A DNA stretch of 64,000 nucleotides, from positions 48,536-112,535 of the forward strand of contig CAZVUC010000017.1 in the NCBI GenBank assembly GCA_964630405.1, read 5' to 3'. The notes below the pieces were generated by a model that saw nothing but the letters and a program-made list of their open reading frames with translations, ran no database searches and was not told the DNA's origin. Positions 10,890-41,650 of the stretch are shown piece by piece; the first letter of the stretch is position 1, and every line of letters begins with the position of its first letter. This DNA comes from an uncultured Syntrophobacterales bacterium (GTDB lineage Bacteria; Desulfobacterota; Binatia; UBA9968; JAJDTQ01). A program made the translations under genes and the position numbers.

Positions 10890-10964
10890 GGCTCGTCCTC
10901 TACCTCCGACGAAATTTCGACGCAAGCCTTGGGAGCTTGCGTCCACCGGCACCGCCGGTGCGGA

Positions 10965-10991
10965 CACGGGCGGGTTTGAAACCCGCCCGTG
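10965..10991. repeat. REP-like palindrome copy 1 (CACGGGCGGGTTTGAAACCCGCCCGTG)
   Basis: Perfect 13-bp-arm hairpin 28 nt downstream of the eutA-like stop; the same GGGCGGGTTTGAAACCCGCCC core recurs at 32052 and 34448. Confidence 0.7.
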
Positions 10992-11019
10992 CACCCTCGT
11001 CTTGCTGCGGCGCAGGTGT

Positions 11020-12526: not shown

Positions 12527-13723
12527 TCAGGCTTCCGGCTGGTAGATCTCGCCGGGCATCTTGGACTTCATCCCCTCCTTGGCCAGGGTCTCCTCGAACT
12601 CCTTGCGCAGGAACGGATCCTCGTCCCGGTAGGCGATGGCGGTGCCGCCGTCCTTGATCTCGATGGCGCCGTAGTCGATGGCCTTCTCGCCGGGCCGGCC
12701 GCGCTCGCGTCCGGGCGCGTGGGGGCCGAACCAAGCCGACAGCCGCAACGGCTCCGCGCTGACGCCGAAGTGGGCATGGAACCAGTTGCCGCCCATGGGG
12801 GCCGCGCTCACCATGCCGACGGGCTCGTAGTCCTGCCGCTTCACCCCTTCCGCCTTGCCGTCCTTCCACGGCGTGGGACCCAGGGTGGAGGGCCAGGTAT
12901 AGGTGTAGCCCTTGCCCTTGACGCAGATGAGCACCGCGGCGGAGCCGTGGGCGTGGGCCTTGGAGTAGCGGCCGGTCTCGTGCTGGCCGATCCACAGGTA
13001 GAAGCTGTTGCCCACCATGTGCGGCTCGATGCGGCGGTAGCCGGGCGAGCGTCGGTTGTCCAGCGGCAACTCGCAGGTGACGATGTCCGGGATGATGTTG
13101 GTCTGGCGCATGGCCAGCCCGCGCACCGGATCCGGCTCGATCTCCTCGTTGGGCTTGTAGTAGTCCTCGGTCTCCTTGTAGCGGTCGCTGAAGACGTAGG
13201 GGCAGTTGAAGATGAAGTCGGTGTTGTTGAACAGGTTCATGATGTTGGGCGCGGTGGTCCCGGCCAACAGCAATGCCGGGCTCGAGGTCGCGTTGACGAT
13301 CTGGTACATGGCGTTCACCGGAATCGCGAACAGCGACCCCTGCTGCCACTCGAAGGTGTGCTTCTTGTCACTACCGTCGGCCCACACCTCGGTGGTGCCG
13401 CGGCCCTCGACCACGAAGAACTGCGCCTCGTACAAATGCTTCTGCGCGTTCAAGGCCCCGGCGCCGGGTACCTCCACCACGTAGGAACCCCAGAGCCCCT
13501 CCGTCCCCAGGAGCTGGATGAAGCTGGCGTTTCCTCCGACCCGCTTCCAATGCTTCAAGGGCAGGTTCTGGACCTTCTCCACGCCGATGTCCCGGTAGAT
13601 GGGGATCTCTTGCTCTTCCATGAAGGTATCGTAGGGCGTGTTGGGACGAAGGAACTTCCCGTAGCCCGCCTTCTGCATCTCGCCCGTGGGCTCCTGCCAT
13701 TTCTCTTTTCCGTTGCCAGCCAT
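12527..13723 (-). CDS. Bicupin protein (two cupin barrels), paralog 1
   Basis: 398 aa; two cupin-like blocks (FFVVEGRGTTEVW and AHAHGSAAVLICVKGKGYTY with an HxH metal motif); CAGGAGG RBS; 10 nt upstream of the eutA-like gene; about 60% identical to the ORF at 59002..60243. Confidence 0.6.
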   Translation of the reverse strand: MAGNGKEKWQEPTGEMQKAGYGKFLRPNTPYDTFMEEQEIPIYRDIGVEKVQNLPLKHWKRVGGNASFIQLLGTEGLWGSYVVEVPGAGALNAQKHLYEAQFFVVEGRGTTEVWADGSDKKHTFEWQQGSLFAIPVNAMYQIVNATSSPALLLAGTTAPNIMNLFNNTDFIFNCPYVFSDRYKETEDYYKPNEEIEPDPVRGLAMRQTNIIPDIVTCELPLDNRRSPGYRRIEPHMVGNSFYLWIGQHETGRYSKAHAHGSAAVLICVKGKGYTYTWPSTLGPTPWKDGKAEGVKRQDYEPVGMVSAAPMGGNWFHAHFGVSAEPLRLSAWFGPHAPGRERGRPGEKAIDYGAIEIKDGGTAIAYRDEDPFLRKEFEETLAKEGMKSKMPGEIYQPEA

Positions 13724-26697: not shown

Positions 26698-28482
26698 TCA
26701 GCGCCGCTGCGTTACCGTATCCACCAGCGCCGGCTTGCCCTGCTTGACCTGTTCGATGGCGCGGTCCAGCGCCGGCCGGAGGTCGTCGGCGTTCTCGATG
26801 GGGCCCTCGCCGTACCAGCCCATGGAGCGGGCCATGGTGGCGAAGTCGGGGTCCGGGCCGCACAGGTCCATGCCGATATGGGCGCGGTTTGGATCGGTGC
26901 CGCGGTTCCGGGCCATGACGATCTGGTGGTTCCAGTCGTTGTAGTAGGCGCGGTTGTTGTACATCACGATGAGCATGGGGATCTCGTACTTGGCGGCGAT
27001 CCACAGGCTGCCGGCGTCGAACATCAGGTCGCCGTCGGGCTGAAGGTCCACCACCAGCCTCCCCTTGCCCCTGTGGGCCAGGGCCACCCCCAGGGAGATA
27101 CCGATCTGCGTGCCGGTTCCCAGCTCACGCCCGCCGTGGCGGTAGGGCTGGTCGAAGTTCCACAGCCGGCGCGCCCAGTCGTGCAGCGTGCCGGAGGTCA
27201 GCACCCAGTCCTCGTCCTTGATGGCGTCCCACACCTCCAGCGCCAGCCGCGGCACGGTCATGGGCACTGCGTCCCAGCGGTCCTCTTTCGCCTGGCGGAG
27301 CCACTCGGCCCGGACCTCGGCGTGGCGCTTGCCCACCTCCTCGGTCCTCTTCGCGATCTGTTCGGCCCGGCCCGGCGTCCCGGCGATGCGTTCCTTCACC
27401 AGCTTCGTCAACGCCGGCGCCGCGGTCACGGGGTCCGCGGTCATGCGCTGGTGGGCGTAGAACGGCCGGGCGTAGGTCATGGCCCACTTGCTGATCTCCG
27501 TGTCGGTGTAGCCGATGTCGATCCAGGTGGCGTCCTCCGGCACCATGCTGACCACGGTGCGGGTGGCGATGTCGCGCACGTGGGTGGGTTTCTCGAAGTC
27601 CGCGATGTCCAGCGTCAGCACCACGTCCGCGTCCTTGTAACAGCCTTCGCTGTCCATGCTCAGGTTCAACGGATGCTCGCTGGGGAAGTTGAGGCGCGAG
27701 TCGCAGTCCCACACCGCCGCTCCGAGGGTCTCGGCCAGCTCCACCACGTGGTCCCAGCCGTGGGGCGGACGGGCGGCGAAGTCGGCCACGATGACCGGGC
27801 GTTTGGCCGCCGCCAGGGTGTCGGCCGCCTTCTCCAGCGCCGTGGGGTCCGCCATGGCCTGCGCGGGCACGTGCACGTTGTCCTCCGGCGGCATGGCCAC
27901 CTCGTGGTCCAGCGCGGCCTCCTGGAGGCCGGCGTCGTAGCACATGTAGATGGGCCCCTGCTTGCCGCTCATCATCACCGCATAGGCCCGGGCAAAGGCG
28001 CCGGGCACGGCGTCGATGGTGGTGGGCTGGGAGTCCCACTTGACGTAGTGGCGGATGGCCTCGCCCTGGACGCTGGCGGAATGGATCCAGTCGATGAAGG
28101 GGCGCCGCTTGGGCTCTTCCATGGGGCCGGTGGCGCCCATGATGAAGATCGGCGCGCGGTCGAGATAGGCGTAGTAGATGCCCATGGGCGCGTGCAGCAG
28201 CCCCACCAGGTTGTGGACGATGGCGATCATCGGCTTGCCGCTGGCGCGGGCGTAGCCGTGGGCGATCTGCACCGCGATCTTCTCGTGGTTGCACAGCATC
28301 ATCGGCGGGTCGTTCTCGCCGTAGTTCACCAGCGAGTCGTGGAGGCCCCGGTAGCTAGCCCCGGGGTTGAGCGCGATGTACTCGAACCCGTAGCGCTTGA
28401 CCATGTCGACGATGACGTCCGACTGCCACTTGCGGTCGGATTTCTTGATCTCGACCGTCTCGATCCTTTCGGCTTTGCTCAT
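26698..28482 (-). CDS. Thiamine-diphosphate-dependent enzyme (acetolactate synthase / benzoylformate decarboxylase superfamily), paralog A
   Basis: N-terminal Pyr domain (ALNPGASYRGLHDSL...NHEKIAVQIAHGYA) and C-terminal PP domain with ThDP motif GTGTQIG...DLQPDGDLMFD...NN; about 90-aa charged helical insertion; GAGGA RBS. Confidence 0.8.
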   Translation of the reverse strand: MSKAERIETVEIKKSDRKWQSDVIVDMVKRYGFEYIALNPGASYRGLHDSLVNYGENDPPMMLCNHEKIAVQIAHGYARASGKPMIAIVHNLVGLLHAPMGIYYAYLDRAPIFIMGATGPMEEPKRRPFIDWIHSASVQGEAIRHYVKWDSQPTTIDAVPGAFARAYAVMMSGKQGPIYMCYDAGLQEAALDHEVAMPPEDNVHVPAQAMADPTALEKAADTLAAAKRPVIVADFAARPPHGWDHVVELAETLGAAVWDCDSRLNFPSEHPLNLSMDSEGCYKDADVVLTLDIADFEKPTHVRDIATRTVVSMVPEDATWIDIGYTDTEISKWAMTYARPFYAHQRMTADPVTAAPALTKLVKERIAGTPGRAEQIAKRTEEVGKRHAEVRAEWLRQAKEDRWDAVPMTVPRLALEVWDAIKDEDWVLTSGTLHDWARRLWNFDQPYRHGGRELGTGTQIGISLGVALAHRGKGRLVVDLQPDGDLMFDAGSLWIAAKYEIPMLIVMYNNRAYYNDWNHQIVMARNRGTDPNRAHIGMDLCGPDPDFATMARSMGWYGEGPIENADDLRPALDRAIEQVKQGKPALVDTVTQRR

Positions 28483-28522
28483 TTCGTGTTCCTCGGTTTC
28501 AGTTTTCGGCCCGACCCCCAAT

Positions 28523-28621
28523 CGTCATTCCCGCGAAAGCGGGAATCCAGGGGTGGGGACGGGTGGACGGAATTGCCGCGGCGCCCCGCCCCGCCTGAAT
28601 TCCCGCTTTCGCGGGAATGAC
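28523..28621. repeat. Inverted pair of palindromic units (CGTCATTCCCGCGAAAGCGGGAAT ... ATTCCCGCTTTCGCGGGAATGACG) flanking a 51-bp G-rich spacer
   Basis: Each unit is itself a perfect hairpin of ATTCCC-N8-GGGAAT form (loop GAAA or TTTC); the two copies are reverse complements of each other; lies in the intergenic region between the two ThDP paralogs. Confidence 0.7.
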
Positions 28622-28706
28622 GGAGAGGCCGCGGGACAGGGCGGAGAGGCCACAGGACCTGGACATAACGGGGAGGGGGCTGGACATGACAAGGAACGGC
28701 CAGCCC

Positions 28707-30473
28707 TCAGGTGTTGATGTCCCGGCGCCAGACGATGGGGTCCACCAGCGCCGGCTTGCCGGCCTTGACCTGCTCGATGGCCCGGCGTACCGCCGGCACC
28801 ACCTCCGCCGGGTCGTCGATGGGGCCTTCGGCGTACCAGCCCATGCCCCGGGCGATGTGGGCAAAGTCCGGCGGCGGCGCCTCGAGATCCATGCCGATGT
28901 AGGCCCGGTCGGGGTCGGTGCCGCGCTGGTGGGCCATGTGGATCTGGTGCGCCCAGTCGTTGTAGTAGGCGCGGTTGTTGTACATGATCACCAGCATGGG
29001 GATGTCGTACTTGATGGGCATCCATAGCGCCCCCAGGTCGAACATGAGGTCGCCGTCGGGCTGGAGGTCCACCACCAGCCTCCCCTGCCCCTTGTGGGCC
29101 AGCGCCACGCCGACGGACATGCCGATCTGGGTGCCGGTGCCCAGCTCCCGGCCCGGATGCCGGTAGGGCCGGTCGAAGTCCCATATCTTCTGGACCCAGT
29201 CCTTCAGGGTCCCGGCGGTCAGCACCCAGTCCTCGTCCTTGATGGCCTGCCACACCTCGTAGGCCAGCCGGGACTCGGTCATGGGCCGCTGGTCCATTTC
29301 CTTCTCGACCTGCTGCTGCCACTTCCGCCATTGCTGCTCGTGCTTGTCCGCCAACGCCTTCTTGCGCTCCTCGACGCGCTCCTTCAGCGCCGCGTCGGCG
29401 TCGATGAGGGCGCCGCACGCCTGGGTGAGCGCCGGGATGGTGATGGAGGTGTCCCCCATGACCCGCAGGTCCCAGTTGTTGTGCTTGTTGTAGTCGGTGG
29501 CCCACTTGCTGATCTCGATGTCGGCGAAGCCCGCGTCGACCCACTTGCAGTCCGGCGTCGTCACCACCGTGATCTCGCGGGTCTGGGTGTTGAGCTTGTG
29601 AGAGCCCCGGGTCCAGTCCACCACGTCGAGCGCCATCACCAGGTCCACCCCCGCAAAGGCGTCCGGGTTGAAGCTCATGCTCAAGGGATGGCGGTTGGGG
29701 AAGCCCAGCCGTTTACACACGTCGAACACCGATGCCCCGACCGTTTCGGCCAGCTCCACAGTGGGCTCATAGCCCTCCGGCATGCGCGCGGCGTACTCGG
29801 TGAGCAGCAACGGGTTGTCCGCGTTCACGAGCATTTCGGCGGCCTGGGCCACCGCCCCCTGCTCCGGCGCGATGCGCGACGGCACCTTCACCGCCGACGC
29901 CGGCGGGATCGTTATGTCGTCGGTGAGCGGGGTTTCCTGCAGCGCCGAGTCGTAGCACATGTAGATGGGGCCCTGGGGCTCGCTCATCATGATGGAGTAG
30001 GCCCGTGCGAAGGAGTCCGGCACGCCATGGATGCTGCCGGGCTGATAGTCCCACTTGGTGAAGTTCCGCACCGCGTCGCCCTGGGCGAACGCCGTATGGA
30101 TCCAGTCGATGAACGGGCGCCGGTACTTCTCGTCCATGGGGCCGGTGGCGCCGATGACGAACACCGGGCAGCGGTCGATGTAGGCGTAGTAGACGCCCAT
30201 GGGCGCGTGCAGCAGCCCCACCACGTCGTGCACGATGGCGATCATGGGCTTGCCCGACGCCTTGGCGTAGCCGTGGGCGATCTGCACCGCGATCTTCTCG
30301 TGGTTGCACAGCAGCATCTCGGGATCGTTCTCGCCGTAGTTCACCATGGAGTCGTGGAGACCCCGGTAGCTCGCCCCCGGGTTCAGCGCGACGTAGGGGA
30401 TGTCGTAGAGTTTCATGAGGTCGACGATGACGTCCGACTGCCAGCGCTGCTCCGATTTCTTGATATCCGACAT
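28707..30473 (-). CDS. Thiamine-diphosphate-dependent enzyme, paralog B (tandem duplicate of 26698..28482)
   Basis: About 60% identical to paralog A along its full length, including ...LNPGASYRGLHDSMVNYGENDP...NHEKIAVQIAHGYAKASGKPMIAIVH... and ...GTGTQIGMSVGVALAHKGQGRLVVDLQPDGDLMFD... Confidence 0.8.
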   Translation of the reverse strand: MSDIKKSEQRWQSDVIVDLMKLYDIPYVALNPGASYRGLHDSMVNYGENDPEMLLCNHEKIAVQIAHGYAKASGKPMIAIVHDVVGLLHAPMGVYYAYIDRCPVFVIGATGPMDEKYRRPFIDWIHTAFAQGDAVRNFTKWDYQPGSIHGVPDSFARAYSIMMSEPQGPIYMCYDSALQETPLTDDITIPPASAVKVPSRIAPEQGAVAQAAEMLVNADNPLLLTEYAARMPEGYEPTVELAETVGASVFDVCKRLGFPNRHPLSMSFNPDAFAGVDLVMALDVVDWTRGSHKLNTQTREITVVTTPDCKWVDAGFADIEISKWATDYNKHNNWDLRVMGDTSITIPALTQACGALIDADAALKERVEERKKALADKHEQQWRKWQQQVEKEMDQRPMTESRLAYEVWQAIKDEDWVLTAGTLKDWVQKIWDFDRPYRHPGRELGTGTQIGMSVGVALAHKGQGRLVVDLQPDGDLMFDLGALWMPIKYDIPMLVIMYNNRAYYNDWAHQIHMAHQRGTDPDRAYIGMDLEAPPPDFAHIARGMGWYAEGPIDDPAEVVPAVRRAIEQVKAGKPALVDPIVWRRDINT

Positions 30474-30613
30474 GAAGTGCCTTTCTCTAACTGTTGATTG
30501 ACGATCCTGCTCTATGATTTATGATCTGAATTGACTAGGTCATCGTCCGGGGCTTGTCAACGTGACCCACGCTTGACAGGGCCGGCGTCACTTCACCGGA
30601 AAGGAGCAGCAAC

Positions 30614-32051: not shown

Positions 32052-32072
32052 CAAGGGCCGTAGGGGTTTGAA
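32052..32072. repeat. REP-like palindrome copy 2 (degenerate: AGGGGTTTGAAACCCGCCCCT)
   Basis: Same right arm AAACCCGCCCC as copies 1 and 3, with a 3-nt deletion in the left arm; 28 nt after the DMT gene stop. Confidence 0.55.
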
Positions 32073-32294
32073 ACCCGCCCCTCCAACTACCTCCCGTGTT
32101 TGAAGCGATTCTCGACGAAGCGCTACGGGGCGCGATTGCAACAAAACACCCGCCGTCGCGCTTGGAAGCATGCACTTTGGTTCACGAACAGTGCGCGCTT
32201 GCAAGTCCAAAGAAACTGGTGGATTGGCTGGATTGAAGGGCCCGGCCAAGCAAGTGGGGATTGTCTGTGAAGTGGGTGAACTCCCAGTGCGACG

Positions 32295-34435: not shown

Positions 34436-34468
34436 CCGCCCGTACACGGGCGGGTTTGAAACCCGCCC

Positions 34469-34482
<14 letters not shown>
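34436..34482. repeat. REP-like palindrome copy 3 embedded in a cluster of three mutually exclusive hairpins (gltB-gltD intergenic region)
   Basis: GGGCGGGTTTGAAACCCGCCC at 34448..34468 begins 1 nt after the gltB TAG stop. It is flanked by CCGCCCGT/ACGGGCGG (34436..34453) and CCGCCCC/GGGGCGG (34463..34482), which compete for the same bases. Confidence 0.65.
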
Positions 34483-39370: not shown

Positions 39371-41650
39371 ATGAAATACGTGGGCCAATCGGTACGCAGT
39401 CTCGATGCGGACGAAAAAGTCACCGGCACCGCCGTCTACACGGCGGATTTGACGGTGCCGGGAATGAAGTTCGCCAGGGTCATCGGCAGTCCCCACGCGC
39501 ACGCGCGCATCGACGGGTTCGACCTCGAAGACGCGCTCGCGGTCCCCGGCGTGCGCACCATCGTGACCCATGACAGCCTCGACTTCAGCCGGCTGGGGTG
39601 CCTCCGCACCCTCAAGCCGTACGGCCAGGCGGTGAAGGACCGCCCGGTGCTGGCCCACGACAAAGTGCGGTTCCAGGGCGAGCCCGTGGCCATCGTGGTG
39701 GCCGACAGCGAGACCGCGGCGGTGGAGGCGGCGGCGCGGGTCGACGTGCGGTACACGCCGCTGCCCCAGGTGTCGGAGATGATGTCGGCGATGGAGGGCG
39801 GCACGCTGGTGCACGACGCCGATTCCGCCTACGACCGTGAGGGCGAAAGCGACTTCGACCACGACTACGGCCGCAACAACTGCGGCGGCACCCACTTCGT
39901 CCAGGGGGACCCGGAGGGGGCCTTCCGCGAGGCCGCCCACGTCATCGAGGACCATTTCTCCTTCCCGTCCCTGTTCCACTATCCCATGGAGCCCCACTGC
40001 GCCGTGGCCACGGTGGACGACGAGTCCGTCACCGTGCACACCTCCTCGCAGGCTCCCTTTCCGGTGCGCGACGAACTGGCGCGCATGTTCGGGCTCGAGC
40101 AGGAGCAGGTGACGGTGAAGGTCCCGTACGTCGGCGGCGGCTTCGGCGCCAAGGGCCACATCGGCGTCGAGCACCTGGCGATCCTGGCGGCGGCCGCCTC
40201 CGGGGAGACGGTGCAGCTTCGCATGTCCATGGAGGAGACCGCGTTCACCGCCCGGCGCCATCCCGCCGAGATCGAGATCCGCACGGGGCTGCGCGAGGAC
40301 GGCACGCTGCTCTGCCGGGAGGCCAGGATCTACCTGGACACGGGCGCCTACGCCGACTTCGGCATCCAGGTGACGCGCAAGGCGGCCTTCCGCTCCGTGG
40401 GACCCTACCGGGTGGAGCACGCCCGGGCCGACTGCTACTCCGTCTACACCAACAAGGTGCCCGCCGGCGCCTTCCGGGGCATCGGCAGCGTCCAGCTCGG
40501 CTGGGCCTGCGAAGCCCACACCGACCACATCTGCACCGAGCTCGGCTACGACCCCATCGAGTTCCGCCTCAAGAACCTGCTGCGGGCCGGCGAGAAATAC
40601 GTGCTCGGCGGTCCGCCGCTGGACGGCAATCCCCATGGAGCGCTGACGGCCTGCCTGGAGCTCTTCGAGAAGACCCGCCGAATCCACGCCCCCGAGTCCC
40701 TGGCGCGAGCCGGCGAGAAGATCGGCACCGGCGTCGCCTGCGCCATCAAGGACCTCTCCACCACCCAGTACAACGCCCGCATCGTGTTCGAGGACGACGC
40801 CACCTTCACCGTCCACGCCAACGCCCCGGAGATCGGGGGCGGCGCCAAGACGGTGCTGGCCCAGACCGCCGCCGAGGCCCTCGGGGTGGGCATCGACCGG
40901 ATCACCATCGCCCCCTACGACACCAGCACCACGCCCGGCGCCTCCGGCGTCTACGGCAGCCGCATCACCGTGCTCATGGGCAACGCGGTGAAGCGGGCGT
41001 CCGAGGAACTGCGGGAGTTGCTGCTGCAACAGGCGGCGTCCCTGACCGACCGGGACGCCCGGGACCTCTCGCTGGAAGACGACGCTTTCTCGAGCGAAGG
41101 CGAGCCGGTAATGACCCTGGACGAGCTGGCGGAAAGGACCACGGGGACCCTTGTGGGCCGGGGCATGGACAAGGCCCTCACCCGCGACCGCATCGACATC
41201 CGCACCTGGGAGATCAACGCCGGCATCGCGGTGATGGCGGTGGACTCGGAAACCGGCAGGGCGCGCTGCCTGACCTACGTCTCCTCGGCCGACATCGGAC
41301 AGGCCATGCACCCGCTCCGGTGCGAGGGACAGGAGCAGGGCTCGATCATGTTCGGCATGGGCAACACGTTGACCGAGGAGCAGGTGTTCGACGGCGCCCT
41401 GCTGCTCAACCCCAGCGCCATCGACTACGCCCTGCCGCGGTTCAAGAACCTGCCGGCGGTGCTCGACTCCGTGCTGATCGAGAACCGGGACGGCCCCGGC
41501 CCCTTCGGCAGCAAGGGTATGGCCGAGGGCGGGCTGGCGCCGGTGGCCCCGGCCATCGCCGCGGCGTTGAGAGAGGCCGTGGGCATCGTGGTCCACGACC
41601 TGCCCATGAGTCCCGAGCGGGTGTACCGGCTGATGGAGCCCGGCGGCTGA
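39371..41650 (+). CDS. Molybdopterin-dependent oxidoreductase, xanthine dehydrogenase/aldehyde oxidase family Mo-binding subunit
   Basis: 759 aa with XDH-family blocks ...GGGFGAKG..., ...AFRGIGSVQ..., ...FGSKGMAEGG...; 270-nt leader upstream. Confidence 0.8.
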   Translation: MKYVGQSVRSLDADEKVTGTAVYTADLTVPGMKFARVIGSPHAHARIDGFDLEDALAVPGVRTIVTHDSLDFSRLGCLRTLKPYGQAVKDRPVLAHDKVRFQGEPVAIVVADSETAAVEAAARVDVRYTPLPQVSEMMSAMEGGTLVHDADSAYDREGESDFDHDYGRNNCGGTHFVQGDPEGAFREAAHVIEDHFSFPSLFHYPMEPHCAVATVDDESVTVHTSSQAPFPVRDELARMFGLEQEQVTVKVPYVGGGFGAKGHIGVEHLAILAAAASGETVQLRMSMEETAFTARRHPAEIEIRTGLREDGTLLCREARIYLDTGAYADFGIQVTRKAAFRSVGPYRVEHARADCYSVYTNKVPAGAFRGIGSVQLGWACEAHTDHICTELGYDPIEFRLKNLLRAGEKYVLGGPPLDGNPHGALTACLELFEKTRRIHAPESLARAGEKIGTGVACAIKDLSTTQYNARIVFEDDATFTVHANAPEIGGGAKTVLAQTAAEALGVGIDRITIAPYDTSTTPGASGVYGSRITVLMGNAVKRASEELRELLLQQAASLTDRDARDLSLEDDAFSSEGEPVMTLDELAERTTGTLVGRGMDKALTRDRIDIRTWEINAGIAVMAVDSETGRARCLTYVSSADIGQAMHPLRCEGQEQGSIMFGMGNTLTEEQVFDGALLLNPSAIDYALPRFKNLPAVLDSVLIENRDGPGPFGSKGMAEGGLAPVAPAIAAALREAVGIVVHDLPMSPERVYRLMEPGG

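Follow-up and report, generated by a model that had tools for sequence, protein, structure and literature searches.

What an inverted pair of small, self-complementary units is doing between two neighbouring genes for ThDP-dependent enzymes is the question that this locus raises. In the window (the whole stretch of DNA that was analysed, 64 kb), the two genes are co-directional and separated by a gap of ~224 bp, in which the first-pass annotation had noticed the pair and had offered three explanations for it: a MITE-like insertion, a recombination hotspot related to the tandem duplication of the two genes and a large regulatory cruciform. The reading that we favour, with a probability of about 85%, is that the pair represents a copy of an interspersed repeat that inserted here recently, namely a tags-outside dimer of CGTC-1 REP units of the dRS3/NTS/SRM class.

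Structure and setting of the inverted pair

Both genes are encoded on the minus strand. Along the gene strand, the stop codon of the upstream gene lies 84 nt before the doublet and the ATG of its downstream paralog 40 nt after it; the two encoded proteins are 58% identical. The gap is probably co-transcribed, which would make the mRNA bicistronic. A promoter and terminator scan detected no promoter-like or terminator-like site in it, the sole terminator-like match of the scan being located on the non-coding strand, inside gene 2. The features of the locus are given below, where the tag, stems, loop and tails of the units were read directly from the sequence and L numbers are handles for the stretches compared with the window.

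26698-28482, minus strand: downstream ThDP-dependent paralog, 594 aa, assigned from its Pfam domains
28508-28522, no strand: outer flank GGCCCGACCCCCAAT, which, as judged by eye, resembles the recurrent family flank ..GGCGCCAACCCCCCGAGT-CGTC
28523-28622, no strand: the whole 100-bp element, most probably a tags-outside (HH) homodimer of CGTC-1 units, REPIN-like, with a spacer conserved among copies
28523-28550, plus strand: unit A, a complete unit of CGTC-1 REP / NTS type, from its sequence, consensus match and hairpin fold
28523-28526, plus strand: tag of unit A, CGTC
28527-28534, plus strand: first stem of unit A, ATTCCCGC
28535-28538, plus strand: loop of unit A, GAAA
28539-28546, plus strand: second stem of unit A, GCGGGAAT
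28547-28550, plus strand: tail of unit A, CCAG
28551-28594, no strand: doublet spacer of 44 nt, imperfectly palindromic and extending the long hairpin, as deduced from the 91% complementary arms and from aligning it to the L121 and L122 doublets
28595-28622, minus strand: unit B, CGTCATTCCCGCGAAAGCGGGAAT-TCAG
28610-28685, no strand: degenerate period-21 array, GAGAGGCCGCGGGAC-AGGGCG about three times, from TRF and a repeat search, overlapping the end of unit B
28707-30473, minus strand: upstream ThDP-dependent enzyme gene, 588 aa, with TPP_enzyme_N/M/C

The 24-mer of unit A, CGTCATTCCCGCGAAAGCGGGAAT, occupies 28523-28546 on the plus strand, and its exact reverse complement, ATTCCCGCTTTCGCGGGAATGACG, is found at 28599-28622. 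The inverted pair of self-complementary units is, therefore, real, although its second member does not lie at 28598-28621, where the first-pass annotation had placed it. The spacer, previously described as 51 bp and G-rich, measures 52 nt between the 24-mers and is itself an imperfect palindrome, so that only its left half is G-rich, while its right half is C-rich. The perfect hairpins with 8-bp stems that had been proposed were recovered in both units, and their GAAA and TTTC loops are those of one unit read on opposite strands. A repeat search extended the inverted repeat to arms of 34 nt (28523-28556 and 28589-28622, 91% complementary), and the 100 bp thus form one long hairpin. As DNA, the hairpins of the individual units fold with -9.0 and -9.1 kcal/mol (z -5.5 and -5.0), and the full 100 nt, as a single hairpin, with -45 kcal/mol (z -8.6); the corresponding 100-nt RNA of the gene strand reaches -77.7 kcal/mol (z -10.2). 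The hairpin is not followed by a U-tract on the gene strand, and an Rfam search over the element returned nothing at gathering score. Permissive thresholds brought up sub-threshold eukaryotic miRNA-precursor models on the long hairpin, which were rejected as generic hairpin matches.

When up to three mismatches were allowed, a 20-mer search found only two sites in the 64 kb, both of them in the doublet, compared to 0 matches in 100 shuffles, indicating that the pair of units is not due to chance. The window contains this one doublet only.

The further direct repeats that had been reported after the hairpin pair are likewise present. TRF delimited a period-21 array of 2.4 copies at 28610-28658, of which a third, weaker copy extends to 28685, and the repeat search retrieved three 17-nt copies (28621-28637, 28642-28658 and 28669-28685), as well as CTGGACAT.. 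twice, at 28659 and 28680. This array resembles the tandem half-unit arrays, GAGAGGGTG-GCGGGAATGACG, that lie beside doublets in L198, L155, L121 and L348, indicating that it is part of the same repeat cluster. The outer flank at 28508-28522 probably also belongs to the inserted element, an assignment made with moderate confidence from its sequence.

Membership of the CGTC-1 class and occurrence across bacteria

CGTC-tagged REPs were defined by Di Nocera, De Gregorio and Rocco in 2013 (PMC3733652). In the parts of that study that bear on the present element, CGTC-1 units have an unpaired terminal tag, CGTC (or TGTC/CCTC), an 8-bp stem starting with AT, a 4-nt loop and a CCA tail, and they occur mainly as tags-outside (HH) homodimers, 20-100 bp apart and with conserved spacers. 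In the same parts of the text, REPs are described as typically sitting between unidirectional ORFs, CGTC-tagged REPs are assigned mostly to alpha-proteobacteria, high-GC proteobacteria included, and dRS3 of Neisseria is stated to be CGTC-1; CGTC and GTAG REPs are treated there as two distinct super-families, with no dedicated transposase known for CGTC-1 (PMC3733652). The neisserial dRS3 consensus is ATTCCC-N8-GGGAAT (PMC11893778). NTS, whose consensus is CGTCATTCCCGCGMAVGCGGGAATCYRG, is an oriented form of the dRS3-type unit, and 'Ssn-related motifs' (SRM) flank ssnA homologues in many phyla (Chenal et al. 2025, PMC11893778).

Both units of the window doublet carry the CGTC tag, at 28523-28526 on the plus strand and at 28622-28619 on the minus strand, and both are built of ATTCCCGC, GAAA and GCGGGAAT. 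The tail is CCA(G) in unit A and TCA(G), with one mismatch, in unit B. The tags are outside, the spacer is homologous among copies and the doublet lies between unidirectional ORFs, the typical position of a REP. Unit A with its flanks (28523-28550) matches the NTS consensus at 28/28 positions and passes the degenerate SRM pattern; the resemblance to dRS3 that the first-pass annotation had pointed out is, thus, correct and closer than had been thought. Unit B (28622-28595, minus strand) matches at 27/28 positions, with a T for C right after the palindrome, and fails both the NTS and the SRM patterns. A second match to the SRM pattern in the window, at 41051-41081, lacks a hairpin core and was treated as a chance occurrence, about 0.9 such matches being expected at the composition of the window.

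Compared with the CGTC-1 REPs, the unit itself shows no difference, whereas the 99-103-bp doublet sub-family of this lineage, with its extended palindromic flanks and period-21 half-unit arrays, is not specifically described in those parts of PMC3733652. With NTS and SRM the element shares the determinants of polarity (CGTC upstream, C downstream), and unit A is identical to the consensus. However, the 64-kb window is devoid of ssnA, unit B lacks the critical C, and the host is not Neisseria but an uncultured high-GC bacterium, for which the transformation-limiting function described in Neisseria cannot be assumed. The core, ATTCCC-N8-GGGAAT, is identical in form to that of the neisserial dRS3/NIME arrays, and the units are likewise grouped with short repeated stretches that lie among and next to them, but here a single doublet with a conserved 44-nt spacer is found in an unrelated genome, and not long RS arrays bounded by dRS3. 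Both the unit and its dimeric arrangement have been described before, and the window doublet is a further copy of them; what is new is this copy, together with a lineage-specific sub-family of ~100-bp doublets.

The exact 20-mer was retrieved from at least 120 genome stretches of many phyla, in a collection of one genome per species (596 Gb) where about one occurrence would be expected by chance. Among the matches listed, its hosts include alpha-, beta- and gamma-proteobacteria, Chloroflexota, Patescibacteria, Planctomycetota, Bacteroidota, Nitrospirota, Acidobacteriota and a Rickettsia endosymbiont, and the GC content of the DNA that carries it ranges from 31 to 69%. The unit had been regarded as unexpected in a genome put at 68% GC. 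Given this range, the mainly alpha-proteobacterial distribution of CGTC REPs and the presence of related motifs across phyla, its occurrence in a window of 66% GC is not surprising.

Alignment of the flanks of 150 copies produced a polar logo, YGTC-core-CCAG/CCAT, often with an inverted partner tens of bases away. An 18-mer that spans the unit and enters the spacer was found in at least 120 metagenome stretches and, among the matches listed, the complete metagenome doublets are mostly 99-103 bp long, with a well-conserved spacer. Read on the tag strand, 80 out of 91 loops are GNRA and 64 out of 91 tags are CGTC. The metagenome Ga0209544 contains many doublets plus a contig of the window's lineage. 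As for target-site duplication, no direct flank duplication of at least 3 nt was detected in any of 43 distinct doublets, and the window copy, whose borders on the gene strand read CTCTC-CGTC...GACG-ATTGG, has none either. The flanks are instead inverted-complementary over at least 5 nt in 25 of the 43, indicating that the palindrome often extends past the tags. The call on duplications is based on the flank statistics of these 43 doublets, the comparison of filled and empty sites having no definable junctions (the insertions of L121 are composite and the gaps otherwise non-homologous).

Many of the doublets in the metagenome loci L126-L245 (e.g. L198 7500-7950, L152, L199 and L206) sit within an inverted repeat of greater size, ..CAGGCTGTGTCAAAAC.. 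/ ..GTTTTGACACAGCCTG.., which has additional half-units at its borders, and these clusters are mosaic, like BIME or NIME arrays. In some metagenome units, the loop is interrupted by inserted sequence (..GCGAAAGC-TTGCCCTCGACCCCGATCGGGG-GCGGGAAT..).

The ThDP gap in close relatives and the rival explanations

The state of the gap between the two paralogs was compared among relatives, which are listed here with the identity of their ThDP gene 1 to that of the window.

L344-L346, 96.6%: gap of 19 bp, empty
L248, 97.1%: gap of 107 bp, with an unrelated small hairpin
L347, 94.9%: gap of 87 bp, with a GTAG-tagged palindrome
L247, 94.9%: gap of 169 bp, with CCCTCTCCC..GGGAGAGGG repeats
L121, 95.6%: gap of 350 bp, with CCCTCTCCC..GGGAGAGGG repeats
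L348, 96.1%: gap of 210 bp, with a CGTC doublet and a half-unit in opposite orientation to the genes, the spacer matching that of the window copy
L122, 85%: doublet at the equivalent gap, both units being the compensatory variant ATTCCGGC..GCCGGAAT
L123-L125, 78%: gap of 43 bp, no repeat

In L121 and L347, perfect doublets were also present on either side of the gene pair, at gaps that are short and empty in the window, and L344-L346 have a unit in the gltB-gltD gap. Over a syntenic region of 20 kb, genomes that are 94-97% identical in the flanking genes differ at no fewer than four insertion sites, identical units occupy four different gaps within ~20 kb and the ThDP gap is filled in both orientations. 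The spacers of the relatives' doublets (L121, L122 and L348) are homologous to the window spacer. Since the same site is filled, empty or inverted among relatives of 94-97% identity, and doublets occur at other gaps, the doublet with its spacer appears to be a mobile, multi-copy entity that is polymorphic among near-identical genomes, its multi-copy nature being drawn from the relatives and the metagenome contigs. The MITE-like insertion of the first-pass annotation is, thus, borne out as regards a recurring ~100-bp doublet that is present or absent at the site, but not as regards target-site duplication, which the 43 doublets do not display.

A locus-specific hairpin, cruciform or terminator controlling the downstream ThDP paralog would be consistent with a location between co-directional genes that ends 40 nt short of the second start codon, with the high stability of the RNA hairpin and with a gap that has no separate promoter-like site. 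Such a regulator is nevertheless improbable: among the 94-97% relatives the site can be a 19-bp gap or be taken up by unrelated repeats, identical units are found at other sites and in hundreds of genomes from unrelated bacteria, and the gene strand offers neither a U-tract nor a terminator-like site, nor does Rfam recognise the element at gathering score. Its absence from close relatives makes a dedicated regulatory role unlikely, including that of the large regulatory cruciform that had been suggested, and we infer that the doublet serves no function specific to this locus. A tie to the tandem duplication, with the doublet as its relic or its driver and as a recombination hotspot at the junction of the ThDP paralogs, had also been considered; the doublet lies exactly at that junction, and in Neisseria a role as recombination substrates has been put forward for dRS3-type repeats (PMC11893778). 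However, the protein identity of the paralogs noted above, and the same tandem pair with a repeat-free junction of 43 bp in the 78% relative and one of 19 bp in the 96.6% relatives, indicate that the duplication is much older than the insertion, so a causal tie between the two is scarcely tenable.

The remaining alternatives concern the kind of mobile element. With a conventional IS-derived MITE, which would have terminal inverted repeats and a target-site duplication as in Correia-like elements, the doublet shares its character as a short, non-coding, multi-copy inverted repeat with presence/absence polymorphism, and in many copies the palindrome runs beyond the tags into longer inverted flanks. 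This origin is highly improbable in view of the missing direct duplications at the borders (0/43, and none at the window copy); moreover, no transposase gene was seen beside any copy in searches directed at Ssn-like and RAYT-like genes. Correia elements are a different family, with different terminal repeats and a TA duplication. The architecture comes closer to that of a classical REPIN or BIME, a GTAG-type REP doublet mobilised by RAYT: in both, the repeated entity is a doublet of inverted palindromic units with a conserved spacer, which forms a long hairpin, is intergenic, lacks target-site duplications and occurs in multiple copies, and each repeat class is associated with a nuclease gene that is present once and has its own repeats around it. 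Yet the tag is CGTC and not the GTAG of Pseudomonas and E. coli, and a phmmer search with E. coli RayT, weak in that it used a single-sequence query, returned no RAYT-like ORF from the window and 340 stretches (2.6 Mb). The genes that these units flank are Ssn-like, so that the associated enzyme is a GIY-YIG nuclease rather than a HUH tyrosine transposase, and mobilisation by such a nuclease is putative. A RAYT-driven GTAG doublet is, thus, very unlikely.

Taking the doublet as an inserted CGTC-1 REP dimer, an annotation of the gap should name a CGTC-1 REP / SRM doublet, and labels such as regulator, terminator or duplication relic should be avoided; the ORFs that run across the gap are spurious and should be disregarded. 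Near-identical genomes provide a clean series of filled and empty sites, which could assist in finding out by what means CGTC REPs move, while neither this series nor the link with Ssn alters what is already known about the family.

Other features were observed in the window and its relatives. A third repeat family, CCCTCTCCC-N3-5-GGGAGAGGG beside GGGGTGAGGG/CCCTCACCC, occupies L121 3211-3561 and L247 11767-11937 and is absent from the 64-kb window. A second palindromic repeat, GGGCGGGTTTGAAACCCGCCC, is located at gene ends in the window (10961-10995 and 34441-34475, with weaker copies at 32053-32087 and 725-759); it ends in ..CCCCTAC, which reads as a GTAG tag on the opposite strand, and has the appearance of a REP family of GTAG type in the same genome, the same unit also filling the ThDP gap in L347. 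One and the same ThDP gap has, thus, been colonised by three repeat families within a clade that is 94-97% identical in the flanking gene. In L348, 5015-5140 corresponds to 28523-28640 of the window (doublet plus adjoining half-unit, between the same two genes, in opposite orientation), which could reflect either an independent insertion or an inversion between flanking inverted half-units.

The doublet of L122 (11820-11916) has ATTCCGGCGAAAGCCGGAAT in both units, where four coordinated substitutions preserve the hairpins and the symmetry of the arms; either it represents a different sub-family or its arms have evolved in concert. Vertical sharing of the doublet with this relative (85%) was considered less likely, as closer relatives are without it and the L122 units show compensatory changes; more probably, another sub-family inserted there independently, or conversion took place. 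The second ThDP gene of L122 (11941-13728) was called with 372 aa only, although its DNA aligns over the full length to that of the window, and this short call on a 5x long-read contig is probably a frameshift from an assembly error. Between the DUF4399 gene and ThDP gene 1, a HicA/HicB pair or HicB alone is encoded in L248 (7672-8255), L345 (8601-9184) and L122 (9137-9349). The counterpart gap of the window (~30474-30613, ~140 bp) contains no HicAB-sized ORF in the list of ORFs of at least 60 aa, and the pair appears to be absent there; its insertion would be another variable spot of the region. Elsewhere in the window, 12740-13645 and 59086-59991 show inverted similarity of ~75% over ~900 nt between two distant coding regions, which are probably paralogous genes on opposite strands.

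Ssn-like nucleases and a possible mode of movement

SsnA is a 94-aa GIY-YIG nuclease that binds NTS as an ssDNA hairpin and cuts a few nt 5' of the motif, while Ssn does not cleave dsDNA, RNA or the reverse strand (PMC11893778). The C directly after the palindrome is the most important single base for SsnA binding, the published arrangement is NTS-ssnA-NTS, and the Ssn domain (cd10448) comprises ~95 aa (PMC11893778). Activity in vitro has been reported for four Ssn proteins, and a role in limiting transformation for N. meningitidis only (PMC11893778). To search for Ssn-like genes, we constructed an HMM from three small GIY-YIG ORFs located beside the repeat, for which PF01541 was confirmed. 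Four Ssn-like ORFs were detected in the 120 genome stretches listed and two in the 120 metagenome stretches listed. SRM units are found within 110 nt of all six, and on both sides of five of them, so that the published link of the units with Ssn-like GIY-YIG genes is reproduced independently. The same HMM search covered the 64-kb window and contigs L121-L125, with L247, L248 and L344-L348 left out, and retrieved no Ssn-like ORF from them.

It is possible, and we put it forward tentatively, that what replicates is the 100-bp doublet as a whole rather than one hairpin, within a REPIN-like system that uses an Ssn GIY-YIG nuclease instead of RAYT and is currently active in this lineage. Already under the favoured reading of an inserted CGTC-1 dimer, each arm would fold in ssDNA as a hairpin nucleated by the d(GCGAAAGC) mini-hairpin. 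The GCGAAAGC at the centre of the unit is a classical extra-stable DNA mini-hairpin. Together with the CGTC tag on its 5' side and the C that follows the stem, the hairpin would constitute a predicted binding site of the Ssn family, provided that the genome has such a nuclease, and an Ssn-type nuclease would cut a few nt 5' of the tag. As the tags are outside, each strand would have one forward unit at its 5' end, and cleavage would be expected at the two outer ends of the doublet. The T that unit B has at the SsnA-critical position would count against this mechanism. In addition, where an ssDNA molecule contains the two arms together, the folding energies favour the long hairpin (-45 kcal/mol) over the pair of small ones (-9 kcal/mol each); as dsDNA is not cleaved by Ssn, the nuclease may act only poorly on the doublet. 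If the REPIN-like proposal were true, this clade would offer a natural system for working out the movement of CGTC REPs.

Any local effect of the insertion would be incidental: an RNA hairpin of -78 kcal/mol could conceivably change how fast the mRNA decays or how strongly one paralog is expressed relative to the other. Elsewhere, REPs stabilise the mRNA upstream of them or modulate gene expression.

The exact 25-mer GTCATTCCCGCGAAAGCGGGAATCC was found in 95 predicted viral/prophage contig stretches (L249-L343), of which two (L310 and L268) contain an Ssn-like ORF.
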